Source: a virus
Lineage: Duplodnaviria; Caudoviricetes
Reading direction: 5' to 3' (one strand)
Virus record (IMG/VR): IMGVR_UViG_2786546882_000003
Coordinates: 1-64,000 of that record
DNA: 64,000 nucleotides
The notes beneath the pieces are model-generated. The model was given only the letters and a program-made list of their open reading frames with translations, was not told the origin of the DNA and searched no databases. The stretch's first letter is position 1, and each line of letters opens with the position of its first letter. The position numbers were made by a program, and so were the translations under genes. Below are positions 7,498 to 60,276 of this stretch, one piece after another.

Positions 7498-7545
7498 TTG
7501 ACCGCCATTTGCCGATCAGTATAATACTTGACGTCGCAAGCAAGT
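7498..7545 (+). promoter_or_regulatory. sigma70-like promoter plus GTCGCAAG hairpin
   Basis: TTGACC-16nt-TATAAT (7498-7525), then ACTTG-acgtcgcaag-CAAGT. Confidence 0.8.
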
Positions 7546-12976: not shown

Positions 12977-13484
12977 CGGCCGTGGTTTCCCCCTCTTCCT
13001 CGATCGTCTCGATCTCGAGCCGCCGATGGACTCGGTCGAGGAGTGCCAGCGGCGTAGCGTGGCGGTCGTCAGGCCAGTCTTCCTTAAAGCCCTCCTCGAT
13101 CACGACGCAGATCGCCTGGACCACGGAGGTCGACTTCGAGTAGGCCTTGGCGTACGCATCGGATAAGTCTTCAGCCGTATGAAGCCGCTGCTCGGTGTCG
13201 TAGAGCTTCGACTCGCACTTCTCGAGTTTGACCAGGCAGTCGTGCAGCTGCTCTTCGCACTCCGACGCGCGAGCGTACGCGTCATCTTGATTCTGGACGG
13301 CTTTCCTCAAGCTTTGCTTCATGTCCTCGCAAAACTGAGCGCCAGCCAGATAAGCCAGGTCGGCCTCTCTGTATTTTTCTTTCCACTGGGCCTCGGAACG
13401 CCGGCTAACCATCGCCGCACGTGCATAAAAGAAAGCGACGATTGCCGTTGCACCCCAACCCCACAGCATTAGTTCATGGCTCAT
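12963..13484 (-). CDS. membrane-anchored coiled-coil protein
   Basis: N-terminal TM, heptad-rich. Confidence 0.7.
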   Translation of the reverse strand: MSHELMLWGWGATAIVAFFYARAAMVSRRSEAQWKEKYREADLAYLAGAQFCEDMKQSLRKAVQNQDDAYARASECEEQLHDCLVKLEKCESKLYDTEQRLHTAEDLSDAYAKAYSKSTSVVQAICVVIEEGFKEDWPDDRHATPLALLDRVHRRLEIETIEEEGETTADDVD

Positions 13485-17780: not shown

Positions 17781-17814
17781 GAACGGGCGTAGGGGGCCTC
17801 AACGGTCCGCTCTC

Positions 17815-18482
17815 GAACTGGACCAGCCTGTTTCAGCTTCGGGGCCTGGAATTGGCGACATGCCGCTGAAGGCCACTGAGAGGCTGGACAACGCGTTTTG
17901 GGCGTACGGGGTATGGAGCGTCGCCTAAGTGGCTTTGCGGCCGTCTCCGGGCCGCACAGGAGCTCTCAGCGGCATTCTGCCATAGCGGCCATCGCGTCAT
18001 GGTGGCTGGCTTAGCTCGGAGGCCTGTGCGATTTTGCACGCGCGGCTGCAGGAAACCCGGCTGTCCTGGTCGACATGGGTAGGGGCCTAGGAGGCTCACA
18101 GACGCATCGTGGCTCTTGGCGGTGTGGTTACTCGGTGGTTGGGCTTTGAGGCCGGGAGACGAAGCCTCTGGAACTGGACCAGCCTGTTTCGGCTTGGAGG
18201 CCTTGCGTCGGCGAGCACTGGGTTTTGTCGCTGAGCGGCCGGGACTCTCTGGATTCGCCCCTCGTGACGCCTGGAGGCCAGGCCGCCGAACTGGACCAGC
18301 CTGTTTCGCTGTCGGGTGGTCTCACTGGCGAGCGTCTGAGCGACTGAAAGCGAAGCGTCCTGCTCGGCTACTGGCCGGGACAGTCGCGATTGGCTGCGGC
18401 TGATTCTAAGCCGCCGGGACGATGGTGTTTCCCGCCGCACGGAGGTCAGGTCGCACTGCGTCGAACTGGACCAGCCTTTTTC
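17815..18482 (+). repeat. four dispersed 20-bp direct repeats GAACTGGACCAGCCT(G/T)TTTC
   Basis: Copies at 17815, 18171, 18288, 18463 in a region without a credible ORF. Confidence 0.85.
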
Positions 18483-18742
18483 GTCGCCAGATGGGGGATT
18501 TGGCGAGCGCAGGACCGCCGCGAATCCGCCGTGTCCCGGCCAAAACCGAGCGTCCGGCACAGCGATCCTGAGCCGTCTCAAAACGAGACGTCCCGCTTGG
18601 GCTGAGACGCCGGGACATCTCACTTTGAGACGAGCTGAAACGTTGCCGTCGCGCATAGTTGACGGCGGGCAAGAGCGAAACGGGCCGGTCCGTACACGTA
18701 CGCGGGCGAGCGGTCAATCGCCACCGTCCGTGTCAGCGCACG

Positions 18743-36558: not shown

Positions 36559-36612
36559 TTGACCGCTGCTTGTCGTCCGGTATACTGAGATAGTCGCAAG
36601 TAAGTTTTCTTT
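36559..36612 (+). promoter_or_regulatory. promoter plus degenerate GTCGCAAG leader
   Basis: TTGACC-16-TATACT; tagtcgcaag..GTTTTCTTTC. Confidence 0.7.
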
Positions 36613-37081: not shown

Positions 37082-37570
37082 ATGGACGATTCACAAACAG
37101 TTACGAGGGAACTTGTGGGTAAACAAGAATCGGCCGCTCAGGAGGTCAGAGCCAAGCCGTTTTCTGACATATTCAGAGAATCGCTCGAAGAGCAGTTCGC
37201 TTCTCTCTCCGAGGCCTCGGAGAAAACCGGCGTGTCTCTTTCCGTACTTACCCGCTACAAGAATGGGACTCGGTCGTTGCGGCTTGATACGGTCGAGAAA
37301 GTTTGGCCACACCTTGGCATTCGGCTCGAACCACCGTCATTCGCAGAGACGGTGCGTACGCAAGGTCTACAGAAAGCGGTGATCGAAATGGTGCAGTCTC
37401 TTGCACTCCCGGACTTGGAGCTAGCGCGTCGATGCGGCCTTAATCAACCGACCTTATGGCGATTCCTGCATGGCAAGAACGTCATTAAGCTCGAGGCAAT
37501 GAGCAAGTTGTGGGCGGTGCTTCCGATCCGCGCGTATCGCGGCAAACGTCGCATCGATCTTATTCAATAG
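37082..37570 (+). CDS. tandem XRE-family HTH regulator
   Basis: SEKTGVSLSVLTRYKNG.RSLRLDT and LARRCGLNQPTLWRFLHG. Confidence 0.85.
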   Translation: MDDSQTVTRELVGKQESAAQEVRAKPFSDIFRESLEEQFASLSEASEKTGVSLSVLTRYKNGTRSLRLDTVEKVWPHLGIRLEPPSFAETVRTQGLQKAVIEMVQSLALPDLELARRCGLNQPTLWRFLHGKNVIKLEAMSKLWAVLPIRAYRGKRRIDLIQ

Positions 37571-39420: not shown

Positions 39421-40218
39421 TTGGAAACGCAACTTCTAGACAAGATGGGGAACGAGATAAAGGTTCCCCCGCGATTCAGCGGAGACGCCAAGAGGTTTGC
39501 CGCTCTTGTCTCTTCGCTGGAGCCACATCACTGCGCTTTCCCTACCGGATATCCGCTTCACCCCGACTCTGGCGAGCCGTGCCGATGCAAGAAGACGTCG
39601 GAAGGTGTCTGCAGGCTTCATAGCGAGAACCTTTTACCGCGCGTCATTAACGACGCACCGAGCGGACGGATTCGTGATGGCCTGATCTCCGCGTTCAAGG
39701 ACTCGCGGCTGACAGATACTCGTCCGAACATCGCGATCGAAGAGTTTCTGCTCAGCGAGCGGATGAAAATGATCGAGAACGGCGAGTCGCGCCGTTTCAT
39801 CGAATATGTCGAATCAGCCACATCTCGGCTTCGAGATTTGTTTGATGCCATGAAGGCGGCAATCAGCGCGGGTGATCAAGAAGAGTTTGCGAATCTGATG
39901 AAGAAGCTCGATCGAGCGATCACCAGCATCAACAAAGTCGTCGACAACCGACACAAGCATCACTCAGCACTTCGGGAGTTGAGCGATGCCAACGGGTCAT
40001 CGATCCGGATGAAAGAGACGGCCAGTCGCATCGCGATTAACGAGCGGCAGGTAATCTCATTCGACACCGCCGTGATCACGATGCGGGAAATGGTCGATCT
40101 GTTTCACTTGGCCGTAAACTCCGTCGTGACCAGCAAACAGGAGCGAAACGAGGTCTATCAGAAACTGTCACACAGCATGTATTCGATCGCCGGTCGCCTA
40201 AAGCCGGAGACTCAATAG
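39421..40218 (+). CDS. probable terminase small subunit
   Basis: Directly upstream of TerL; C...C...CRLH followed by helical region. Confidence 0.55.
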   Translation: METQLLDKMGNEIKVPPRFSGDAKRFAALVSSLEPHHCAFPTGYPLHPDSGEPCRCKKTSEGVCRLHSENLLPRVINDAPSGRIRDGLISAFKDSRLTDTRPNIAIEEFLLSERMKMIENGESRRFIEYVESATSRLRDLFDAMKAAISAGDQEEFANLMKKLDRAITSINKVVDNRHKHHSALRELSDANGSSIRMKETASRIAINERQVISFDTAVITMREMVDLFHLAVNSVVTSKQERNEVYQKLSHSMYSIAGRLKPETQ

Positions 40219-42254
40219 TGTTTCAGAATTTGATTGACGAGGCTCGTCAGGAAACGTCGCAGAACTTCCTGACCAAGAGCCTCGACAGTTTCTACAACAT
40301 CGGCGAAGACGCGCGAGTCGAGCACGCTAGAAAACTGGCCGCAACGGGAAACCCATTTCCGTTGATTGCTCTGCAGTGGCCCGACGACTTGGTCATCAAA
40401 GACAAAAAGCTCGAGCAGTATTTCGAAGGAGAGGTCGGCAACCCAGACAATCCTTGCCTGCGGATCGACCCGTGGCAGCGGTTGGTGATTCGCGCGGCAT
40501 TTGACGTTACTGTCGGTGAGATTGCGATGAAGGGCTGTACGGGGGCCGGAAAAGGCTTCACGTCGGCGATCGTCGCTAATCTCCTGTTTGACGTCTTCAA
40601 TCCATGCCGGATCAATGTGACGTCCGAGACGTTCCGTCACGCCAGTGAGAACCTGTTCGGTGAAATCTCGGTGTGGCGCGACAAGATGTCCAACCCTGGG
40701 CCCGGCAATCTGGTCAGCTGCCAGCTCGGCGACACAAAACGTCACTACATCACCGTCCTAAACCCGAGTCCGCACGGGAAAGGGGAGGCGTTTTCGGGTA
40801 TGCACTCGGAAATGACCGTCTATTTCTTTGACGAGGCATCTGGCGTACCTGAGATCCACTACACGAACGCGTTGAAGAACGCGCGGAAGATCTTCGCGTT
40901 GTCAAACCCGCGTATTACCGAGGGTTGGTTCCGAGACTTGTACCGACCCTTGCGTGGGGAAGGCACAAAGGAGGAGAAGAACGATCGTGAAAACGCGACG
41001 AACTATTGTACTGGTCGGATCGGCCGCCGACTTTGCGTGACCATTCCCGGCGACGCGTGTGCCAATGTTCGATTCGGCCGGATCAAGAACCCGGTAGCTC
41101 CCCGCCGTGGAGTCGTGATCGAAGGGAAAGAGTACGGACCGGCAGAGCGGATCCCAGACGAAGACTTCGAGAAAGTCAAAGCCCTCGTGCCTCGGCAGAT
41201 CGACTTGGAGCAATACCAGTCGATCATCGACACGTCAAAAGAGCCTTGGGAAGTCGAATGCTACGCGCACGCAAGGTTCCCGACGGAAGACCCAGTGCGT
41301 CAGGTCATTCTCGGGTCCAATCTGGAGCGACACGTCGAAGAATACCGAAGACGGGCTGGACGCATTGCCGTAACATGCTTTGGCCTTGACGTGGCCCGGT
41401 CAAAGAGCGGTGACGAAACGATTCTGATGGCAGGCAGTGTTGATGGCGTGGCAAGAAAGCATGCCTGGAAAGATGACGACAACATGCGTCATGTCAAGAA
41501 GATCTTGCGACTTTGTGAATCGGAGTACGGCATCGATCTTCGTGACGGAACCAACCCGATTTGCATCGACTACGCGGGGGGATACGGTGCGGGCGTAGGC
41601 GACCGGCTACAGGAACTTGGCTGTTGGGTGATCAAGTTCCAGCCGGCTGGTCGAGCGGTTGTCGAGACCGGCGGCATTTACGTCAACGCCCGCGCTGAGT
41701 GGTACATGTTGCTAGGCCGTCGTTTTGACCCAAATGACATCTGGCAAGAAAAACCCTGGCCTTTTCCGCCGGACGATGAACTGATCGAAGAGTTGACCAG
41801 TCCCGTCAAATTTCCGGCTCGAGGCGGAACCGCCTGGCAGATCGAGCCAAAGGATGACATCAAGAAACGCCTCGGTCGGTCTCCCGACTCGGCTGACGCT
41901 ATGGTCTGTTTGTACCGAGCCGTGTTCGAGCTCTATGAGCTTGAGAACGTCATGCGACAACACAATGAGTATGAAGTCATTGCGGAGGCAGCCACTTCCG
42001 ATCCAATCGTGTTGGGGCAACATCTTGATAACCCTCGCATCCGCAGAGCAAACGATCCTGTGAAGACGCCGGAAGAGCAAGAGTATGAACGTGTCGACCC
42101 ACCGGTCCGGATGACAGAGGGGATTGAGTCACGTCCGATTGAAGAGATCATCGACGATTTCGCTGACTTTGTCAGCGGATACGAAAGGGGATCGAATCAG
42201 CGGGTAAAGCCTCCGACGTTGGACTTCTTTGATAACGATGGGGACGACTGGTGA
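40218..42254 (+). CDS. terL: terminase large subunit
   Basis: Walker A KGCTGAGKG, Walker B FFDEASG, LSNP, RNase H GLDVAR, SPDSADA. Confidence 0.93.
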   Translation: MFQNLIDEARQETSQNFLTKSLDSFYNIGEDARVEHARKLAATGNPFPLIALQWPDDLVIKDKKLEQYFEGEVGNPDNPCLRIDPWQRLVIRAAFDVTVGEIAMKGCTGAGKGFTSAIVANLLFDVFNPCRINVTSETFRHASENLFGEISVWRDKMSNPGPGNLVSCQLGDTKRHYITVLNPSPHGKGEAFSGMHSEMTVYFFDEASGVPEIHYTNALKNARKIFALSNPRITEGWFRDLYRPLRGEGTKEEKNDRENATNYCTGRIGRRLCVTIPGDACANVRFGRIKNPVAPRRGVVIEGKEYGPAERIPDEDFEKVKALVPRQIDLEQYQSIIDTSKEPWEVECYAHARFPTEDPVRQVILGSNLERHVEEYRRRAGRIAVTCFGLDVARSKSGDETILMAGSVDGVARKHAWKDDDNMRHVKKILRLCESEYGIDLRDGTNPICIDYAGGYGAGVGDRLQELGCWVIKFQPAGRAVVETGGIYVNARAEWYMLLGRRFDPNDIWQEKPWPFPPDDELIEELTSPVKFPARGGTAWQIEPKDDIKKRLGRSPDSADAMVCLYRAVFELYELENVMRQHNEYEVIAEAATSDPIVLGQHLDNPRIRRANDPVKTPEEQEYERVDPPVRMTEGIESRPIEEIIDDFADFVSGYERGSNQRVKPPTLDFFDNDGDDW

Positions 42255-42685: not shown

Positions 42686-44137
42686 ATGTCGAGTATCACC
42701 CAACACTCTTTGTCGCGCGCTCGCCAACTAAGCGATGGGTATCTAGAAACCATCCATCGTAAACGTGCTGATCGCTCGGGGTCTTCTGGCGGTGCTTACG
42801 AGCAAGTCAGCGGGATCGGTCTGTTTGGCCAGCGGTCGAATTTCTCCAATTCGCGGCAGTTCTATGACGCCTTTCGCGACACAGCGTTTACCGCGATCAG
42901 ACCGGTCGCTACCCGCTTCGCCCAGCAGCCACTCCGTGTTGCCGTAACGCCACGCCGCTCGCAACGGACGAGTTTCAGCTCGATGGTGAAGTCGCTTCGC
43001 GGCGAAGGTTTCATCGGCAGCGGATTCGAGGGCCGGCAGAAGAGCTACCGGCGCGCCATGCCGGAGGCCATCAAGCAAATGCTGCCGCCTGACAGCATCG
43101 TTCTGGATGAGCACATCGTGACGGAGGCCTTCCGGCGCCCGAACATCTGGCACAGCGACTACAGCACTTTGTACAGCGTCGCCGCATCGATGCTGTGTTG
43201 TGGTTCGGCTTTGATTACCTGGGACGAGGAAAACCTCTCGGCCGGCGAGAGCGGAGAAGAGTCCCCCTCCGTGTATTACATTCCAATGCACTGGGTGGAG
43301 CCCAAGGAGAACGTTCTCCAAGGCTGGACGATTACTCCGCCGCACACAGGCGAATCGTTTGATGTCGAGCCTGGCGAATACGTTTACTTCCAGATGCCTG
43401 ACCCCGGGGATCCATTCAACACCGTTTCGCCGATGCGAGCAGCTGCCCGCGCAATTAACACAGCGGACAAGATCCACGACGCCAACTACAACGGCCTCCA
43501 GAACCTAATCAATCCGAGCTACGCGATCGTCGCCGGCAAGATCGAGCAGCCTACCGGTGGCCAGGCCAGGCGGCCGGAACTTCGCGGCGAACAGCGCCGG
43601 AAGCTGACCGAGTTGATTAAACGGTATGCCGCCGGTGTCTTGCGGAACGGTGATCCGATCATCCTCGATGGAATCATCGAAGACGTCAAACCACTCGGTA
43701 CGGTGCAGCGCGACGTCGACTATTCCGGCGGCAATGCGATGACCGAGCGGAAGATCATGCAGGCCTTCGGTGTCAGCCCCGTGGTCGCCGGCTACGCAGA
43801 GAACGCGAACCGGGCGGGATCAAATGTTGCGCACGAAGTGTTCTACGACGTCGTTCTAAACCCACTGCTATTGCAAGCAGGCCGATCTCTCACGCATACG
43901 CTTGGTCCGAAATACTCTACGGATCAGTATCGTGTGACCGTCTACATGGAGTCAGCACAGGTTAACGACCCTGACTCAAAGCTTCGTCGCGTGGCGTTGT
44001 TCAAAGACCGATTGAGTGACCAGGAGGCTCGCCGCTTCATGCGGACAGGTGAGCTCGACATCGAGGATGAGGATAAGACATTTGAGCAAGAAAGGCAGCA
44101 ACGCCAGCGCGAACAGAACAATCCAGTGGGAAGGTAA
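42686..44137 (+). CDS. portal protein (HK97 family)
   Basis: Position; F.RPN, SPMRAA, IMQAFGVSP..G, LNPLL. Confidence 0.9.
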   Translation: MSSITQHSLSRARQLSDGYLETIHRKRADRSGSSGGAYEQVSGIGLFGQRSNFSNSRQFYDAFRDTAFTAIRPVATRFAQQPLRVAVTPRRSQRTSFSSMVKSLRGEGFIGSGFEGRQKSYRRAMPEAIKQMLPPDSIVLDEHIVTEAFRRPNIWHSDYSTLYSVAASMLCCGSALITWDEENLSAGESGEESPSVYYIPMHWVEPKENVLQGWTITPPHTGESFDVEPGEYVYFQMPDPGDPFNTVSPMRAAARAINTADKIHDANYNGLQNLINPSYAIVAGKIEQPTGGQARRPELRGEQRRKLTELIKRYAAGVLRNGDPIILDGIIEDVKPLGTVQRDVDYSGGNAMTERKIMQAFGVSPVVAGYAENANRAGSNVAHEVFYDVVLNPLLLQAGRSLTHTLGPKYSTDQYRVTVYMESAQVNDPDSKLRRVALFKDRLSDQEARRFMRTGELDIEDEDKTFEQERQQRQREQNNPVGR

Positions 44138-44369
44138 TCCCGGCGATCAGTTCTATGAATCCGGTGTGTTTGTCGGCACGCCTGAAGGCGACCTGAACGA
44201 GAGGCGGCAATTGGCTCAGGCCTTACATGGTTTGTATGCCGCGATCACAGAAAACCTTGGCAAAACCGGCAAATACGCGGAGATCGGATTTGCCGTCCAG
44301 ATCGTTGACGGCAAGCTCAAGATCTGCGAGGCGTCAACAAAAAGGACATTCAAGCCAGCAAAAGAATAG
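44082..44369 (+). CDS. hypothetical protein
   Basis: ORF between portal and protease; start uncertain. Confidence 0.5.
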   Translation: MSKKGSNASANRTIQWEGNPGDQFYESGVFVGTPEGDLNERRQLAQALHGLYAAITENLGKTGKYAEIGFAVQIVDGKLKICEASTKRTFKPAKE

Positions 44370-44487
44370 CGCTTTTTGACTTAAGCGTATGACTTTTGCA
44401 AATATCAGATTTGATGCGAATCGCATTTGATCCGAGGTTAGCACAAGCAACCCGGTAGCTGCACCAAGCGGCTGCCGGGTTTTTTCG
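44367..44487 (+). promoter_or_regulatory. late leader A: putative promoter, GCACAAG hairpin and overlapping terminator
   Basis: TAGCGCTTTTTGAC...TGCAAATAT...CGAGGTTAGCACAAGCAACCCG(terminator)CGGGTTTTTT. Confidence 0.85.
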
Positions 44488-44499
44488 TTGGGACATGCT

Positions 44500-46005
44500 A
44501 TGGCACTCATTGACTTGATTAAACACGCACGCAGTGGCAATGGACTCATTGCTACCGCTGCCCCGTATCTCAAGGAAATGCAAGCCTGTTTGAAAGGCGA
44601 AGGTGCCTGCCCAGCGAAACTGTTCGGTCTCGATAGCGCTGATGCCTGGAAGAAGGCTCTGGAAGAGGCCGACGAGAAGCTCACATACTGCGATCCAAAC
44701 GGCGGGATCAAGAGCGTCAAGTCAGAGAAGGCCGAGCTGAGTGAAGGTTCGATCCTCGACTACGACGCGATCCTGTCGACAAGTCAAAAAGACCGAGACG
44801 GTGACATTCTTCGCACAGAGGGCATGCAGCTTGAGCCTGGCATGCCGCTGCTTTGGCAGCACATGTGGAACCAGCCGATCGGCAAGATGCTCAGCATCGT
44901 GGAGCAGAACGACCGCCATGTCGTTTGCAAATACGCCGTTGCTGATACGGAAATGGGACGCGATGCCGCGAAGCTAATCCGCATGGGCGCCCTTCGAAAA
45001 AGTCATGGGTTCATGCCAATCCCCGGCTATTTCGAAATGATCGACGTCGAAAAGTCGGCTGATGGATCAATGACGCCTGCCGGCTATGACATCAAACGCT
45101 GCTCGGTGTACGAGTCCAGTGTCGTGAGCATTCCGGCCAACGCCGGCACACGCATCTTGCGGACCTACGAGAAAGAAGCTTCCGCAATCTTCACGGCGGT
45201 TGAGCAAAAGCAGCTTGAGAGTGAAGTGTTCAGCCGATGGGCCAAGGGCCTGTACGACAACCGTCAGCGGTTCTTCCCTGGAGCCGATTTTGGGCGACTC
45301 GAAAAGATGATGACCGAGATGAAAAAGACGGTCGAGGATATGGTGACTGCCAAGACTCCTGGGCAGAAGGACATGCAGTCCGACAGCCGTCCGAAGTGCA
45401 GCGAGTGTGAAGACGGCTATTGCGATGAAAGCGGCACGTGCGACCACTGCGGTCATGTCATGCCGAAGTCTGGAAAGTCGGCAGGTCAACCCGCGTTCAT
45501 CAAGTCATTTGACGAATCGGTTGCGATGACCAAGTCCTACGGGATGCCAGATTCGCTGCCTGGTTCATTCGAATCCGTTCAACGCGCCCTCAGTCGAAAG
45601 GCTGAAGACTACCTCGAGGATAACGGGGTCGATGTCGGCGACTACGAGTACGTAACCCTGATCGCCACTTTCAGCGACAGTGCGATCGTCTGCAAGCGGA
45701 ACTACCGCAAAGACTCTGAGTACTGTTACCGCCTCATGTGGGAAATGACCGAAGGCAAGCCGGCATTTACCGGCCAGCCCGAGAAGGTCGAGATCGAAGC
45801 CACCGTGGTCAGCAAGGCACTCGACGCCAGCGGCGCCCGCATCAAAGAGATGGGTGCTGACGCCTACGCCAAGAAGCTTGTCAGTTCGGCTTTCGCCGAC
45901 GGCGAGCTGAGCGATGAGACCAAGAAATCAATCAACACGCTCGCGGCGCTGATCAACCAGCCAGAAGAGCAAACCAACCCATTGACCGCTTTGTTTGGCG
46001 GTTAA
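44500..46005 (+). CDS. HK97-type prohead protease with long C-terminal extension
   Basis: DRDGDI, LLWQH..QPIGK, S.GF.P, ESSVVSIPAN. Confidence 0.9.
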   Translation: MALIDLIKHARSGNGLIATAAPYLKEMQACLKGEGACPAKLFGLDSADAWKKALEEADEKLTYCDPNGGIKSVKSEKAELSEGSILDYDAILSTSQKDRDGDILRTEGMQLEPGMPLLWQHMWNQPIGKMLSIVEQNDRHVVCKYAVADTEMGRDAAKLIRMGALRKSHGFMPIPGYFEMIDVEKSADGSMTPAGYDIKRCSVYESSVVSIPANAGTRILRTYEKEASAIFTAVEQKQLESEVFSRWAKGLYDNRQRFFPGADFGRLEKMMTEMKKTVEDMVTAKTPGQKDMQSDSRPKCSECEDGYCDESGTCDHCGHVMPKSGKSAGQPAFIKSFDESVAMTKSYGMPDSLPGSFESVQRALSRKAEDYLEDNGVDVGDYEYVTLIATFSDSAIVCKRNYRKDSEYCYRLMWEMTEGKPAFTGQPEKVEIEATVVSKALDASGARIKEMGADAYAKKLVSSAFADGELSDETKKSINTLAALINQPEEQTNPLTALFGG

Positions 46006-46057
46006 TCACTACCCGTCGCCGACCGCATCATGTTCGGCCGCAAATTAGGAGATCTAC

Positions 46058-47695
46058 GTGATCAAAGTGACGAAGGCGCTTGCTGCGCACGCGGCCGAAC
46101 ATCTCGGCCTCGATTCTGATCTTGCCAAGGACTACAAGGCAAACGAAGACGCAATCCGCAAGTGCGTTTCGGAAGCCTTGACCGAAGGTAAGTTGGAAAT
46201 CGGACAACTGCAAAAGTTGATGGAAACGCCTGCCGAAGACGAGGCCAGCACGAAGGCCAAGCAGATGATCGGCGAGGCTGTCGGTGAAGCAATGGCTCCG
46301 TTTGCGAAGGGCCTGAGCGATTTGACCGATACCCTCAGCAAAGCGTTTGGCTCCGGCCAAGCGGCCACGGGTGAGACCAAGGAAACCAAGGGCGAAGGCG
46401 CTGGCGCCAAGGCCTATGGTGCGGCCGGTTCGAACCAAGGCGGAGAATCGACCCCTCCCCGCGTGAAGTGTGTCTCCGAACTGTACGACCGCACGACCAA
46501 GTCGGCGACTCGTCCCAACGGTATGCCGTACGCGATCAAGGGCGACGACGACGGAACTCCCGGTCGTGACCTGATGCACCCCAGTCAGTTTGACAAGGCT
46601 GTGTCGGGTGCGTGGTTGAAGTTCATGATCAACCGCCAGGCCAAAGTGGACAACCACAGCGTGCCGAACGGTCTGAAAATGACCGATCACGACTGGGCGT
46701 TGGTCAAGTATGCGGCCAACGAGATGCCGTTCCTCGGCCCTGTCGGCATGAAGAGCGAAGACGACGACGCCAGCTCCGGTTGGGCCAAGGGAACGCGGCT
46801 CAACGACATGCAGGTCAAGACGTTGCTTGACGACGCGACCTCCGGCGGTTTGGAAGCAGTTCCAATCGTGTTCGACGACATCGCCATTCTGACCCCGTTG
46901 CTCAACGGCGAGTTGTTCCCCTACGTCGATGTCCGCACCACGACCCGTCGTCGTGTGGAAGGCTTCGCGATGGGCAACCCTTCGGTCTACTGGACGGCTG
47001 AAGGGTCCACCCCGACCGTGTTCAGCACCGACGACTTCATCTCGGCCTTCGACACCAACGTCCACCCCTGTACGGGAACGATGGAAGTCGGCCTGGACTT
47101 CGAGGCGGATTCGCCCGTCGGCATCGCCGATCTGTTGATCAGCCGCTACGGCCAGCAAATGGCTACCGAGTTGGACAACGTCATCGCGACTGGCTCCGGC
47201 ACCGGCCGACCGCTTGGTATTTTCAACACGGTTGGGTTGACCTCGCTCAGCACCGCGAACGGAACCGGTGGTCCCTGGACGATCGGCGACATCGACAAGC
47301 TGTATTACGGCGTCGATGCGGCCTTCCGCCAGGAAGCCGGCAACCGATTGGTCTTCGTCGGCAACGACGTGACCTACCAGCGTCTGCGTTCGATCCAAGT
47401 CGGAACCTCCGACCAGCGCCGGGTGCTCGGAATGAGCTACCTCGGAACCGGTCGTCCGATGATCAACGACGTCATGTATGCCCGCAACACGGGGATCGGA
47501 AACGGTTCGTTGGCAGCCTGCTGCTTGAACCGCTACGTCATCTACCGCCGGGCAGGTTTCTCGGTTCGCCGCGAAACCGGTGGTACGACCTTGGCGGCCA
47601 AGAACTTGAGCCAGTACATCTTCCGCATGCGGGTAGGTGGCCAGCTCAACCACAGTTCGGCCGCAGTCATCTACGACGGTGACGGCCAAACCTAA
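46058..47695 (+). CDS. major capsid protein (HK97 fold)
   Basis: SGGLEAVP..F, W.AEG, G.GTG.PLGI; strong codon bias; terminator after gene. Confidence 0.92.
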   Translation: MIKVTKALAAHAAEHLGLDSDLAKDYKANEDAIRKCVSEALTEGKLEIGQLQKLMETPAEDEASTKAKQMIGEAVGEAMAPFAKGLSDLTDTLSKAFGSGQAATGETKETKGEGAGAKAYGAAGSNQGGESTPPRVKCVSELYDRTTKSATRPNGMPYAIKGDDDGTPGRDLMHPSQFDKAVSGAWLKFMINRQAKVDNHSVPNGLKMTDHDWALVKYAANEMPFLGPVGMKSEDDDASSGWAKGTRLNDMQVKTLLDDATSGGLEAVPIVFDDIAILTPLLNGELFPYVDVRTTTRRRVEGFAMGNPSVYWTAEGSTPTVFSTDDFISAFDTNVHPCTGTMEVGLDFEADSPVGIADLLISRYGQQMATELDNVIATGSGTGRPLGIFNTVGLTSLSTANGTGGPWTIGDIDKLYYGVDAAFRQEAGNRLVFVGNDVTYQRLRSIQVGTSDQRRVLGMSYLGTGRPMINDVMYARNTGIGNGSLAACCLNRYVIYRRAGFSVRRETGGTTLAAKNLSQYIFRMRVGGQLNHSSAAVIYDGDGQT

Positions 47696-47730: not shown

Positions 47731-47769
47731 ACAGCCCCCGGGGTTTGCTCCACCCTGGGGGCTGTTTTT
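47731..47769 (+). terminator. intrinsic terminator after MCP
   Basis: ACAGCCCCCGGGG...CCCTGGGGGCTGT-TTTT. Confidence 0.88.
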
Positions 47770-55834: not shown

Positions 55835-56742
55835 TGGCACAGGTCGTAGAAGGCGGATCAAACGGTTGGGTTGAGGTTGGCGGTCACCCCGACCTCAGCA
55901 TGAAGCTGGTCATGAGCCGCACTACGCGCAGCATCACCCGCGTGTTCATGATCGAGTCGCCGACCGGCGTGTACGATGAGGTTAATGCCTTCTTGGCGGA
56001 ATGCCGACCGGCTTTTTCCCCGCCGGGAAAATACCCGATCCTCGGCGTGCAGCTGTACGTGGACACCGTCAACATTGAACCATACGGAGCGGTCGGCAAA
56101 GATGACTTAGGAAAGCCTGTCCAAATCAACGGGTTTCCGTCGTACGAGTCGTTCAAAGCGACTGTCACCTACACGCCGTTGCCGTACCAGCCGAAAAACC
56201 CAAACCAACCTTCTCCCGATCCACTTCTGGACAACCTCGAGATCGTCGCGAATGTCGGCGCCGAGGCGATGTCCCTCCCTGGCTCTCAGTTGTACTGGGC
56301 CGGCGGAACAAAGGTCACGAACGATCCAACGGTTGCCGCGTCGATCCGGATCGACACGATCGACTACCAGATCACGAAGCATCACCTCAGGCGAACTGAC
56401 ATCCCGTGGGATGCGATCCGTACGATCAACAGTCGAGTCAACGAAGCCGCGTTCAGTGACTCACACCCCATCTTCCCTGGAGTCAAGCAGGAATCGCTGC
56501 TGTTTCGTGGCGCGCAGATCTCAATTCGGTTTTCTGGTGACGGGACGATCGAGAACTCGTTGACGTACAACTTCTCGGAGCGTACAGCGACGCACGACGG
56601 GGTGGACGTGAGCTGGAACCACCTGTACGACTCGCAAGCGGGTCAGCAGAAATTCCGGAAGGTCTACAAGGACTCGGCGAACAACAAGCCGCTCTACTCT
56701 ACGTCCACTCAATCGGAAATTGAGGCGATCTTCGACACATGA
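55834..56742 (+). CDS. probable tail tip/baseplate protein
   Basis: Follows TMP; beta-rich; VN...F...LLF.G...TYNF...WNH. Confidence 0.65.
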   Translation: MAQVVEGGSNGWVEVGGHPDLSMKLVMSRTTRSITRVFMIESPTGVYDEVNAFLAECRPAFSPPGKYPILGVQLYVDTVNIEPYGAVGKDDLGKPVQINGFPSYESFKATVTYTPLPYQPKNPNQPSPDPLLDNLEIVANVGAEAMSLPGSQLYWAGGTKVTNDPTVAASIRIDTIDYQITKHHLRRTDIPWDAIRTINSRVNEAAFSDSHPIFPGVKQESLLFRGAQISIRFSGDGTIENSLTYNFSERTATHDGVDVSWNHLYDSQAGQQKFRKVYKDSANNKPLYSTSTQSEIEAIFDT

Positions 56743-57386
56743 TGTTGAGCATGCGGCAATCTGGGGCCGGCCCTCTTAAGCGGTGGTCGGCCGGCGATGC
56801 TATCGTTCAGTCCAGGCTGAACGGTATGGTTGACGGTATTAACCGCGCCAACGCGTTGTCGGTAGGCAATACATCCGGCAGCGTGCTGCTCGCGCAGACT
56901 GTGGCCGAGAGCTCGAGCTACCCCGCCGCATCGACAAACCCCAATGTCTACCCGTTCCGATGGTGTGGTTTAACGGATCCGGCTGACACGCGATTTACGG
57001 CCGCCGGTCGTGTTTCGCTGTCGGCAGACACGGCAGTATTCGGCATCAGCGGCTATGTCCTGAACATCGCGGCGACAAGTTCTGACGACCCTAGCAATTA
57101 CATCCCAGAAAACTCACTGATCCTTCTTTCCCCGTGTAACCTCGGGTTCTGGGTCACCTTCTACAGCGTCTTTCGGCTGTATCGGTTCACTTTGACCTCA
57201 GTGTTCACGAGTAATACGGCGACGGCCAATATCAGCGAGATGTCCGGGACTTCTGCGTTCACGGGGGTTGATCTCAAAGACCCAGAGGCAGTGTTTGACA
57301 CTCTGGAGTCGGGAGATACCGGCCTCTGCGTGTATCAAGACGGCCAGTGGTTTGCGATTCAGGCCCCATGCCCCGTGACGACCTAA
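56739..57386 (+). CDS. probable tail protein
   Basis: W.AGD...LN.MVD.IN N-terminus; beta-rich. Confidence 0.6.
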   Translation: MMLSMRQSGAGPLKRWSAGDAIVQSRLNGMVDGINRANALSVGNTSGSVLLAQTVAESSSYPAASTNPNVYPFRWCGLTDPADTRFTAAGRVSLSADTAVFGISGYVLNIAATSSDDPSNYIPENSLILLSPCNLGFWVTFYSVFRLYRFTLTSVFTSNTATANISEMSGTSAFTGVDLKDPEAVFDTLESGDTGLCVYQDGQWFAIQAPCPVTT

Positions 57387-57392
57387 CCAGAT

Positions 57393-57510
57393 TAGCGCTT
57401 TTTGACCTATCTGGTTTATCTGCGAATATGACGTTTGATCCATAGAGATATTCGAGGTTAGCACAAGCAACCCGAAATTCTGCCAGTGCGCAGGGTTTCG
57501 GGTTTTTTCG
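57393..57510 (+). promoter_or_regulatory. late leader B: putative promoter, GCACAAG hairpin and overlapping terminator
   Basis: TAGCGCTTTTTGAC...TGCGAATAT...CGAGGTTAGCACAAGCAACCCG(terminator)CGGGTTTTTT. Confidence 0.85.
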
Positions 57511-57527: not shown

Positions 57528-57728
57528 ATGAACAAAGCAAAGGTTTGGAAATTCGTAAAGGGTGCGTTGATCGCATCCGCTGGCGCCGCCCTGGCTTATT
57601 TGGGCGGACAAGTAATTCCAGCGTTGGAAGTAGCTGGTACGTCGGCCACGATCGTCGCGATCGCTTCGGCATTGGTGAACCTTGGAAAGGTGATCCTGCA
57701 GAAGATCGACGACGGGGCCGCACAGTAA
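57528..57728 (+). CDS. holin-like two-TM protein
   Basis: KGALIASAGAALAYL...IVAIASALVNL. Confidence 0.6.
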   Translation: MNKAKVWKFVKGALIASAGAALAYLGGQVIPALEVAGTSATIVAIASALVNLGKVILQKIDDGAAQ

Positions 57729-58018
57729 TGCTCTGGATAATTCGTCGATTCAACGCCCGCAGGAAACTGCGGGCTTTGCCGCCTGAGCAGCGCGAAGTCG
57801 CTTTGGCGATGGCGGCCGATTGCTGCCACAACGCGGCGACAGCCGAAGACTGCGAACTGCTCGCCAAGAACAAACTTGAGAGCGATCCGCCTGTCGGTTT
57901 CGGCGTCGTCGAGATTCTCGCAGTGATCCAAGTACTCATTGCGATCTGGAAGTTCATCGACTCGATGGGCTGGCTTGATCGTGCAAACCGACCAATGCTC
58001 GAGAAGGAATTGCTGTGA
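57728..58018 (+). CDS. membrane protein
   Basis: TAATG coupling; C-terminal TM. Confidence 0.65.
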   Translation: MLWIIRRFNARRKLRALPPEQREVALAMAADCCHNAATAEDCELLAKNKLESDPPVGFGVVEILAVIQVLIAIWKFIDSMGWLDRANRPMLEKELL

Positions 58019-58278
58019 CCTATTTCTTTGTCGCGCTCGTCGTCATGAGCCTCGTGTATTTCGCGTGGCAGGCGTTTGTCAAATTCCGTCCAAAACGTGA
58101 AGTCCAGCAATTGGATGTTGATCCTGCGGACGTCGATCGCAATCGGATGGAAGCGCACCGATGTTACGAATGGCTGCGGAAATACCTTGAGTTTGCTGGT
58201 GAGACGGAAGCACGGCAGCACCTCAACAAATCTGCGGCCAGCCTTTACACCAGCGAACCCAAAAGCACGCAGTCATGA
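58015..58278 (+). CDS. membrane protein
   Basis: N-terminal TM, GTGA overlap. Confidence 0.7.
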   Translation: MTYFFVALVVMSLVYFAWQAFVKFRPKREVQQLDVDPADVDRNRMEAHRCYEWLRKYLEFAGETEARQHLNKSAASLYTSEPKSTQS

Positions 58279-58709
58279 ACTTAAACAAAACCGTTGGGCT
58301 GGTTTTGGCATTGAGCTTAGCGTTCCTCGCCGGGCAGTTCTTCAGCGGCAGTGGCGGCTTCTCGATTCCGGACTTTGGCGGTGTCATTCCGATCGTCGAA
58401 CCGAAGGTCAACGGCGAAGGCTGGTTGGTCATGGTCGACGAGCTAAGTGATCCGCTGACGGTGACTGTCGATGCCGCCAGGAACATGGAGTGGCAAGAGA
58501 AGCTGACCAGCAAAGAGATCAAGTTCGCACGCTACGACGATGACGACGCCGTGGCGGAGAGCTACGTCAAAGCGCTCAGCGAAAAAGTACCAGGCGTGTT
58601 GCTTATGGAAGACGAAGCCGACGGCAGGAAGGTCGTGGCGACAAAGGCTTTGACCAAAGACGACACGCTCAGTTCGATCACCGCATTTGTGGACGCCCAT
58701 ACCAAATGA
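58275..58709 (+). CDS. secreted/membrane protein, possibly thioredoxin-like fold
   Basis: Signal/TM; RYDDD...VPGVLL. Confidence 0.65.
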   Translation: MNLNKTVGLVLALSLAFLAGQFFSGSGGFSIPDFGGVIPIVEPKVNGEGWLVMVDELSDPLTVTVDAARNMEWQEKLTSKEIKFARYDDDDAVAESYVKALSEKVPGVLLMEDEADGRKVVATKALTKDDTLSSITAFVDAHTK

Positions 58710-59587
58710 CGAAAGTCGGCGAAATCGTAAAGACGGCTCCTGGCCAGCTTGATGAAATCATCGGGCCAGAGGGTAACCGGATCAAACTCGGGCTGCGGAA
58801 GCCGCCAAAAGAGTTGCCGGTCACATACGCGCCGTTGGTCGGGGCTTTGCCTCGCCTGTTGACCTACGATGAGATTAAGGCAAGGTGCGAAAGCGTCGAC
58901 CGCCGCCCCTCCCGTGATCGATGGGGCCCAGACACGATCAAGGACCAAGATGGCCGAGGAGCCTGCCAAGGGTATGCGTCTGCCGGCATGGCCGAGCGTG
59001 TCCGAGAATCTAGCGGTCAGAAGCGAGTCGTCTTGTCTGGCGACTTCTCTTACTCGCTTGCCAATGGCGGCCGAGACCAGGGGTCTGCTTTGTCGCGCGG
59101 CTTCATGGCGGCTACCCAGGTCGGCTATGCCCCTGAAGACACGCCCGGCCTGAAGCGATGGGAATACCGCAAATCGCACATGCCGCAGGCTGCGTTCGCG
59201 GCTGCTAGCCGGTTCAAGGGTATCGACGGATTCTACTGCGAAACGCAGCAGGAATTCTTCACGGCTCTTGCCCTCGGCATGATCGGCGTGATCGCCGTAC
59301 ACGTTGCCGGCGCTTTTTCGCAACTCGACAACTACGGGATCAGTCAAGGCGGCAACGGCGATGGTAACCACGCCGTGTGTGCGGACGACTTGGTCTACGA
59401 CCGTCGGCTCGGCGGATTCAAGATCGACTCACCAAACAGTTGGAAGCGGACTTGGGGGGATAACGGACGTTGTTACTACACGTTCGAACGTCACCTTCGC
59501 CGCACTATCGAAGTTCACAAGTTCTACGTCTTCCCGATTCTTACGCAGGATCCACAAGGCGATAACCCACCTCAGGTGCTCGTATGA
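58706..59587 (+). CDS. papain-like (C1) cysteine peptidase
   Basis: KDQDGRGAC, NHAV, NSW..TWG.NG. Confidence 0.88.
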   Translation: MTKVGEIVKTAPGQLDEIIGPEGNRIKLGLRKPPKELPVTYAPLVGALPRLLTYDEIKARCESVDRRPSRDRWGPDTIKDQDGRGACQGYASAGMAERVRESSGQKRVVLSGDFSYSLANGGRDQGSALSRGFMAATQVGYAPEDTPGLKRWEYRKSHMPQAAFAAASRFKGIDGFYCETQQEFFTALALGMIGVIAVHVAGAFSQLDNYGISQGGNGDGNHAVCADDLVYDRRLGGFKIDSPNSWKRTWGDNGRCYYTFERHLRRTIEVHKFYVFPILTQDPQGDNPPQVLV

Positions 59588-60276
59588 AAACTCTAGCATG
59601 GATGTTCAGCTCGGCGACCGTCGCCGCGCTTGTCTCTTTGATCGGCGTCACGGACCAAGAACCACAGACCGCTGTCGACGTCCCTGTCGCAAGCGCGCCA
59701 GTTGAAGCCGAAGTAGCTCCGGCTACGACGGTGGAGAGTTCAGACTGCTGCAGCGGGAGCTGTAACTGCTGCACGTGCGACAAAGACGCGAAGGCGGAAG
59801 CGGAGCCGGCCGAAAAGGCTGAAGTCGAGACTGCAAGTCGCCCGGAACCGAAGTTCGCGGTCGGAGAGATCGTCAGTGCAAACGGCGAGAAGTTGCGAAT
59901 TAAAAGTGCCTTCTACGACGGCGATGAGTGGAAATATAAGGCTGAAGCCGTAGCGAGTACACCCGTGTACTCCTCGTCAACCGGTTCGATTGCTTCCGGG
60001 TTCTACGACGGTACGAGCAAGTGGGATTACCCAGGCGACATCGCCCAACACTTGCTGAATCATCCGAACCATCAGTTCAGCTACTCGCAAGTGGCCGGGA
60101 AGTCCAAGGACGAACTCGAGGCAATGCACGACGCTCACCATGATCAGATGTCCGGCGTCTCTGGCCAAAGTGTTGGGGCATACCGGGTCACGAGCCCTGG
60201 GCTGTTGTCGTATCCGATGTTCCAGAGCTCTGGTCGCAGTTCGTATTGCCCCAGCGGTCGCTGCCCGTTTCAGTAA
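59584..60276 (+). CDS. secreted Cys/His-rich protein
   Basis: Signal peptide; CC...C.CC.C; WDYPG...HL..H..H...H..HH; CPSGRCP. Confidence 0.75.
   Translation: MKTLAWMFSSATVAALVSLIGVTDQEPQTAVDVPVASAPVEAEVAPATTVESSDCCSGSCNCCTCDKDAKAEAEPAEKAEVETASRPEPKFAVGEIVSANGEKLRIKSAFYDGDEWKYKAEAVASTPVYSSSTGSIASGFYDGTSKWDYPGDIAQHLLNHPNHQFSYSQVAGKSKDELEAMHDAHHDQMSGVSGQSVGAYRVTSPGLLSYPMFQSSGRSSYCPSGRCPFQ

Follow-up and report, generated by a model that had tools for sequence, protein, structure and literature searches.

The two late leaders of the phage analysed here look like an uncatalogued on/off gate for late genes, with one leader placed ahead of head genes and the other ahead of a probable lysis cassette. 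In the reading that we prefer, to which we give a probability of about one half, both leaders would work as a factor-dependent switch between an antiterminator hairpin and a terminator, similar to the BglG/LicT-RAT systems, and would thereby gate the head and the probable lysis genes. In particular, a local switch with a sequence-specific binder is suggested by the fixed overlap between hairpin and terminator, by a three-way covariation at the base of the two folds and by the conservation of the hairpin stem and bulges at the level of sequence.

The window, i.e. the whole stretch of 64,000 nucleotides that was analysed, represents the first 64 kb of a 100,062-bp contig, which is the longest in a 165-contig, 3.56-Mb assembly and is phage-like along its whole span, with PhoH, ThyX, helicases, methylases and SSB being encoded. 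BLAST against GenBank phages gave no DNA match, and the capsid protein found there a best match of about 24% identity covering one quarter of its length; by these comparisons, the phage is without a close cultured relative. Its host group is likely Planctomycetaceae, as related protease genes are found in Planctomycetaceae assemblies. The virion block lies on the + strand and further holds the tail tube and tape measure genes. The features of this block and of the two leaders are as follows:

40218-42254, + strand: terminase (virion block)
42686-44137, + strand: portal (virion block)
44082-44369, + strand: small ORF P0046 (95 aa), directly 5' of leader A and ending in the TAG of the TAGCGC box
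44367-44405, + strand: promoter-like site of leader A, with -35 TTGACT at 44376-44381 and an 18-nt spacer
44432-44455, + strand: predicted hairpin of leader A, CCG(A)GGUU(A)GC-ACAA-GCAACC-CGG, -9.9 kcal/mol alone
44449-44485, + strand: predicted intrinsic terminator of leader A, with a 14-bp stem at 44449-44481 and a U tract at 44480-44485
44500-47695, + strand: genes putatively gated by leader A (protease/scaffold fusion, major capsid protein)
44500-46005, + strand: prohead protease/scaffold fusion (PF04586), behind leader A
46058-47695, + strand: major capsid protein, behind leader A
47731-47765, + strand: third strong terminator, directly 3' of the capsid gene, with no promoter behind it
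57393-57429, + strand: promoter-like site of leader B, with -35 TTGACC at 57402-57407 and a 16-nt spacer
57451-57476, + strand: predicted antiterminator-type hairpin of leader B, UUCG(A)GGUU(A)GC-ACAA-GCAACC-CGAA, -9.5 kcal/mol alone
57469-57508, + strand: predicted intrinsic terminator of leader B, with a 15-bp stem at 57469-57504 and a U tract at 57503-57508, its first 8 nt being shared with the hairpin 3' arm

Leader A is placed 3' of the portal gene and the small ORF and 5' of the prohead protease gene. It does not open the late region but sits inside it, with portal and small ORF preceding it. Leader B is found 3' of a tail-region gene (56739-57386) and 20 nt 5' of the gene for a 66-aa protein with two transmembrane segments.

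The repeat that links the leaders is the 22-mer CGAGGTTAGCACAAGCAACCCG, which is present letter for letter at 44433-44454 (leader A) and 57453-57474 (leader B). These were the two matches in the window with up to 3 mismatches, and none of 100 shuffles gave any; across the whole 3.56-Mb assembly there was no third copy, a single 3-mismatch match on another contig being due to chance. The blocks that had been described as common to both leaders, namely TAGCGCTTTTTGAC, TGC(A/G)AATAT, TTTGAT, the 22-mer and CGGGTTTTTTCGT, were all recovered in the leader alignment, and the search of the rest of the genome for the repeated element that had been proposed along with them returned only the two leader copies in the assembly. 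The two leaders align as islands of identity, separated by sequence that is unalike and of unequal length.

Through an exact search of IMG/VR a single contig was obtained, IMGVR_UViG_3300013800_000047 (30.7 kb); it shows synteny with window 36-61 kb, and its protease is 47% identical to that of the window. At the syntenic site on the protease side, this relative carries TTGACT, a 16-nt spacer and AATCAT, followed by the exact 23-mer CGAGGTTAGCACAAGCAACCCGG, so that the absence of the 22-mer from related phages, raised earlier as a result that would speak against the switch, was not what was found. The promoter spacer, the 5' leader and the terminator interior of this copy all differ from those of the window. 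Since neutral DNA is saturated at 47% protein identity, the identity of the 23-mer reflects selection rather than recent copying. A covariance model built from the three copies then recovered a fourth one in the same contig (69 bits, E about 1e-15). It follows TTGACA-N16-AACCAT and precedes a gene for an 84-aa transmembrane protein, genes for more membrane proteins, for a papain-like protein and for a Cys-rich secreted protein. Thus, both phages carry the element twice, ahead of the head genes and ahead of a membrane-protein/peptidase cassette. The exact conservation of the hairpin that had been claimed holds for three of the four copies; in the fourth the loop reads ACCU and is therefore not strictly invariant.

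All four copies begin with a promoter-like site, composed of TTGAC(T/C/T/A), 16-18 nt and then GC followed by (A/G)A(A/T/C)(T/C)AT. In leader A the shared box TAGCGCTTTTTGAC occupies 44367-44380, where the upstream ORF uses its TAG as stop codon, and TGC plus AAATAT follow at 44397-44405; in leader B the box is found at 57393-57406 and TGC plus the -10-like GAATAT at 57421-57429. The pattern TTGAC-N14-17-GCRANYAT occurs in the window only at the two leaders, against 0.18 matches expected. With a near-consensus -35 and a weak -10 (3-4/6), these sites are unlike the early promoters of the phage (TTGAC-N17-TATAAT). From these elements both late leaders appear to start with a host-sigma70-type promoter; the weak -10 might mean that the promoters need an activator or that the leaders are read mainly from upstream. 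The nearest canonical + strand promoter upstream of the leaders is at 36559, and transcripts coming from upstream would also cross the leaders. The conserved hairpin of the four copies lies at about 19, 21, 26 and 29 nt from the -10, yet always with the same terminator overlap, which ties it to the terminator and not to the promoter.

The conserved core folds into a hairpin of 9-10 bp with two single-A bulges in the 5' arm and a tetraloop, worth -9.5 to -10.8 kcal/mol alone, as compared to -24 to -28 kcal/mol for the terminators. In leader A it is preceded by a variable 5' stem-loop at about 44413-44427. The terminator stem of leader B is formed by AACCCGAAATTCTGC and GCAGGGTTTCGGGTT, which make 15 bp including two G-U and are followed by six U; in leader A six U follow a 14-bp stem. 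The earlier observation that the stem interiors differ between the leaders and still pair was thus borne out (14 bp in A, 15 bp in B). The terminators have -28 kcal/mol in leader A and -23.9 kcal/mol in leader B, and the segments of hairpin plus terminator fold far better than shuffles (z -4.8 in A, -4.9 in B). In all four copies the hairpin 3' arm, AACCCG(G/A), is also the first 7-8 nt of the terminator 5' arm, and the two folds are therefore mutually exclusive.

Comparison of the four copies agrees with this arrangement. All 9 hairpin pairs are kept (100% paired), with two compensatory changes from C-G to U-A and none broken, while slid-partner controls were 19-47% paired; the covariation observed was reached by 26 of 500 shuffles and, coming from four copies in two phages, rests on two events. 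At the basal position, where the hairpin 5' arm, the shared base and the terminator 3' arm meet, three copies have C/G/C and leader B has U/A/U, a three-way change to be expected only where the shared nucleotide is required to pair in each of the two folds. When growing transcripts were folded, the hairpin was retained in the minimum-energy fold of three copies until the whole terminator 3' arm up to the U tract had been made, with an ambiguous readout for the fourth copy; at full length the terminator forms in all four. The fourth copy has, besides the loop ACCU in place of ACAA, an inner pair changed from C-G to U-A. The loop can therefore not be the sole determinant of recognition; both bulged A and the stem segments GGUU/AACC and CG/CG are invariant in the four copies. 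The claim of sequence-specific recognition is accordingly retained for the stem and bulges, which are selectively conserved next to a diverged terminator interior. All in all, considering how few sequences there are, the support for two mutually exclusive folds is good.

Two further structures were considered and set aside. RNAalifold suggested an anti-antiterminator for upstream transcripts in which the -35 box UGACYU pairs with AGGUUA; this pairing involves invariant bases with no covariation and is broken in one copy. Leader A also contains a 14-codon ORF (ATG at 44414 to TAG at 44456-44458) that spans the hairpin; attenuation through a leader peptide was rejected, as leader B lacks the start codon and its corresponding frame is interrupted by a stop, and the ORF is probably fortuitous.

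The same symmetry could belong to DNA instead of RNA, with GGTTAGC / GCAACC serving as operator or roadblock for a dimeric DNA-binding protein such as the HTH_3 protein encoded at 37082-37570. The phage does encode HTH proteins, the HTH_3 gene has a homologue in the relative, and the symmetric changes (left C to T, right G to A) keep the imperfect palindrome as well as they keep the stem. However, one-base bulges on one arm only, which are ordinary in RNA, destroy the register of duplex half-sites, the distance to the promoter varies by 10 nt at a fixed terminator overlap, and the basal pair co-varies with the terminator 3' arm too, making a DNA-level site highly improbable.

As for the sequence of events, the preferred switch would run as follows. 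The host-sigma70-type promoter, with its good -35 and weak -10, would start a transcript of about 70-75 nt, in which the small hairpin (9-10 bp, two bulged A, tetraloop) would form within about 20 nt of the transcript start. RNA polymerase would then complete the strong intrinsic terminator, whose 5' arm opens with the 7-8-nt 3' arm of the hairpin. With no factor present, the longer perfect terminator helix would displace the hairpin and transcription would stop short of the protease/capsid genes or of the probable lysis cassette. The conserved stem and bulges would be recognized by a factor made by the phage, most likely a protein, which would hold the hairpin closed; the terminator could then not be completed beside the U tract, and polymerase would read into the genes. 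In this way one signal would release both modules. The activity of the promoters, the termination step, the factor itself with its nature, and the timing are all deduced here from sequence. Of the terminator arm, which is 14-15 nt long, the hairpin masks no more than 7-8 nt, and the leftover inner stem of 7-10 bp, placed 7-8 nt from the U tract, might still terminate in part. The co-regulation of head assembly and lysis by one late antiterminator, as previously proposed, gains from the recurrence of the pairing between head genes and cassette in the relative, the antiterminator itself being a putative one.

The main rival to the local switch is processive antitermination, in which the hairpin loads a factor that rides RNA polymerase past this and the downstream terminators, the overlap being incidental or an aid to timing. 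The succession of promoter, small conserved hairpin, terminator and long operon is the layout of nut and LoaP leaders (PMC12691694, PMC3526286), and a pair of identical sites per genome, with identity across relatives, resembles nutL/nutR. Moreover, about 10 kb of tail genes lie behind the capsid-gene terminator with no promoter and need some read-through, and the hairpin covers only about half of the terminator arm. On the other hand, the overlap is kept in 4/4 copies despite diverged terminator interiors, with a shared nucleotide that co-varies with both partners, the phage contig shows no NusG paralog, Q or recognizable N-like protein, and there would be no need for another loading site on the same strand 13 kb downstream. 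The terminator behind the capsid gene bears on the same point. It is kept in position and not in sequence in the relative (L006, about 13408-13450), would be pointless if polymerase were terminator-proof, and makes more sense if polymerase is not generally so, in line with the local reading; it probably sets the ratio of capsid to tail transcripts. A processive mechanism is thus, in our estimate, unlikely.

The short terminated transcripts of about 70-75 nt could themselves be the product, i.e. two paralogous small RNAs with the 22-mer as seed. Indeed, bacterial sRNA genes have this layout of a promoter, about 70 nt and a Rho-independent terminator, their families typically combine a conserved core with a freely varying terminator interior, and the weak Rfam matches are only to sRNA terminators. 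Against this, the phage contig contains no complementary site of at least 11 nt, 12-mers in the host assembly do not exceed chance, compensatory changes maintain the conserved core as a hairpin and not as an open seed, and the fourth copy alters four central positions and would break the seed. Furthermore, each copy precedes by about 15-20 nt the start codon of a large operon lacking any other promoter. Small RNAs are for these reasons considered very unlikely.

In IMG/VR and GTDB, the motif was absent from distant relatives (49 loci, protease at most 40% identical), both by mismatch search and by covariance model, and in several of them a plain terminator occupies the corresponding site ahead of the protease gene. 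Protein searches also listed closer protease homologues, P0002-P0006 (50-62% identical), and the small-protein homologues P0047-P0052; among close relatives, the motif survey covered one contig. In the 202 genomes of the host family, the pattern with up to 3 mismatches gave one match, within chance expectation. Two sets of candidates were discarded as chance: 24 matches to an exact 17-mer in JGI metagenome contigs, all of them without flanking bases or terminator, and seven matches in IMG/VR to the degenerate pattern CGAGGTTAG-N7-CAACCCG, all in coding sequence.

One of the distant loci carries a leader of its own. In a Planctomycetaceae MAG contig (CAYSUC010000398.1; L033, about 1-205), TTGACG-N17-CATAAT, some 100 nt of leader and then a strong terminator that ends in TTTTTTCGTT lie directly 5' of the protease gene. 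Nothing in this stretch resembles the 22-mer, and the arrangement may represent an analogous gate of different specificity.

In the version with no dedicated trans factor, promoter and attenuator would be constitutive and would insulate modules and set transcript ratios by partial termination, with the hairpin serving RNA stability or processing, or tuning the terminator kinetically through polymerase speed or NTP level. No regulator was found on the phage contig, the plain terminators of distant relatives and the unrelated leader of L033 suggest that a terminator at that place is a habit of the phage group, and the outcome could be kinetic since the hairpin lasts in the minimum-energy fold of three copies until the last terminator bases. 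Nevertheless, at about 47% protein identity, the exact conservation of 22-23 nt including stem bases and both bulged A exceeds what pairing or kinetics need, which argues for sequence-specific recognition by a macromolecule, and terminators of -24 to -28 kcal/mol with six U ahead of the most abundant virion proteins would be costly with no means of opening them. We therefore regard a factor-less attenuator as improbable.

Comparison of the preferred switch with known systems places it nearest to RAT. LicT and BglG bind a RAT hairpin that overlaps a terminator, where the terminator is thermodynamically favoured and a sequence-specific binder is needed (PMC5393181, PMC12591593). As in the BglG/SacY/LicT-RAT systems (E. 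coli bgl; B. subtilis sacB, licS and bglPH), the phage leader has a short bulged hairpin whose 3' part is the 5' part of the terminator. By analogy, the phage element most likely works like RAT. The phage hairpin is, in contrast, 24-26 nt long and apparently unrelated in sequence, it precedes late genes and not sugar operons, and a CAT_RBD/PRD protein is absent from the phage and the host assembly. RAT elements are palindrome-like and about 29-30 nt long. ANTAR targets consist of two tandem hairpins with hexaloops containing A1 and G4, whereas the phage has one conserved hairpin with the tetraloop ACAA/ACCU and a 5' stem-loop that is variable or absent.

The N-nut system of lambda and P22 (boxA plus boxB) shares with the phage leaders a small hairpin before the first terminator, two near-identical copies per genome and a sequence common to phages of like specificity. 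Lambda nut differs in having no terminator overlap and in serving early operons, with N acting processively together with Nus factors; no boxA is conserved among the four leader copies. Lambdoid Q (PR'-qut-tR', with the short terminated 6S transcript) is similar in that promoter and terminator stand directly before the lysis and head genes, and a small gene lies immediately upstream of one phage leader copy. Nevertheless, the DNA site of Q has a fixed position in the promoter and a sigma-dependent pause is required, while the spacing in the phage varies by 10 nt, the conserved part of its leader is tied to the terminator, and no Q-family domain is found.

LoaP is a NusG paralog for which a hairpin in the dfn leader is essential for read-through of an intrinsic terminator before a very long operon (PMC12691694). 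The dfn and mln leaders of Bacillus velezensis thus share with the phage a small leader RNA hairpin, a terminator and a long operon; unlike them, the phage hairpin is not of the UNCG type that the NusG-like protein binds, and the phage contig has no NusG paralog. Xp10 p7 and P23-45 gp39 need no RNA site (PMC6624301, PMC3351154). Together with HK022 put, they resemble the present case in that phage late genes lie behind intrinsic terminators to be overcome, and they differ from it in that the phage leader has a conserved 24-nt hairpin overlapping the terminator. HK022 put, an RNA of about 70 nt with two stems, acts with no protein and would give no timing.

In parallel, Rfam models run on the whole window at gathering thresholds gave 0 matches and, at E up to 10, only weak look-alikes of terminators. 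The element thus resembles RAT- and nut-type leaders yet appears to match no known family, having no cognate domain, no Rfam match and a different size and sequence. What is understood of late-gene control in phages comes mostly from Q and N of the lambda type, from alternative sigma factors and from activators that bind DNA, and a local gate of hairpin against terminator before head and lysis genes would add a different logic to it. To our knowledge, no local RAT-like hairpin-clamp mechanism has been described for phage late genes, and we know of almost nothing on transcription control in Planctomycetaceae phages or their hosts. Phages are not mentioned at all in a 2025 review of RNA-binding antiterminators. 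The element, being about 120 nt long, self-contained and repeated, is directly testable by reporters, and the phage leader offers a handle for finding the putative RNA-binding factor.

Pfam scans of the about 125 ORFs of the 100-kb phage contig showed no CAT_RBD, ANTAR, Q, NusG-like, sigma or antiterminator family. In six-frame searches, CAT_RBD (PF03123) had 0 matches in the whole assembly, with control genomes being matched, and the Q family (PF06530) had 0 matches. The NGN domain of NusG (PF02357) matched once in the assembly, on host contig C98 (the host NusG), and not on the phage contig. ANTAR (PF03861) likewise matched once in the assembly, on host contig C25 (30243-30398, - strand; a 224-aa frame, 77.7 bits), with none on the phage contig, and the 22-mer motif is absent from host contigs. 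No N-like protein was recognizable on the phage contig, these proteins having no reliable profile.

The small ORF P0046 can be considered a candidate for the trans-acting factor only by its position and by its co-occurrence with the hairpin in two genomes. Of all the loci fetched, just the window phage and the hairpin-bearing relative have it, in both cases at the equivalent site; proteins of its family, about 80-100 aa in size, are rare. Its structure model comprises a disordered N-terminus, one helix and a beta-hairpin, with a core pLDDT of 76-85. P0046 had no Pfam match even at E up to 5, which leaves a DUF2292-like assignment unsupported, and nothing below E 0.68 in a Foldseek search against the PDB; an atlas search was uninformative, and an IMG/VR search with the small-protein alignment found no relatives. 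That late timing is set by a phage RNA-binding protein of a new family, perhaps P0046, which would clamp the 24-nt hairpin and block the terminator locally, is put forward as a tentative idea that we consider rather doubtful.

The genes that leader B would gate form a cassette, for which the sequence-only reading had proposed a role in lysis:

57528-60276, + strand: putatively gated cassette (small membrane/secreted proteins, peptidase, Cys-rich protein)
57528-57728, + strand: 66-aa protein with two transmembrane segments, first gene behind leader B
58706-59587, + strand: papain-like Peptidase_C1 (293 aa), after four small membrane proteins
59584-60276, + strand: Cys-rich secreted protein, at the cassette end

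Three more small membrane or secreted proteins are encoded between the 66-aa protein and Peptidase_C1. The 293-aa protein is a phage-type Peptidase_C1 (atlas score 0.98, TM 0.83), and one related viral atlas cluster carries a peptidoglycan-binding domain. Peptidase_C1 occupies the position where an endolysin is expected, and it may be the enzyme with which a Planctomycetaceae phage hydrolyses the cell wall. In the relative, the second copy is followed by an analogous cassette. A lysis module is made plausible by the membrane proteins, the phage-type peptidase and the cluster with the peptidoglycan-binding domain, while the Pfam, PHROGs and PDB matches of the cassette proteins are only weak.

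The two copies of the relative (L006 10162-10227, L007 9983-10048) are near-identical in the terminator interior and differ at the hairpin tip, the reverse of the window phage, in which the hairpins are identical and the terminator interiors different. The reversed pattern suggests gene conversion or recent duplication in one lineage, and there are possibly two affinity classes of hairpin site.

Outside the late region, near-consensus promoters of the form TTGAC-N17-TATAAT are found on the + strand of the window at 7498, 20592, 21253, 22650, 24778, 25803 and 36556. They have a common TTGCCGAT-like spacer and often a GC hairpin plus a TTCCTTCCACTGGAG box ahead of the start codon, and this set is a separate early-leader system, distinct from the late leaders. 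Finally, an ORF-poor region at window 17810-18506 contains four direct repeats of about 49 nt (core GAACTGGACCAGCCTGTTTC), spaced by 117-356 nt, which could represent iterons or an origin, or else a repeated regulatory site.
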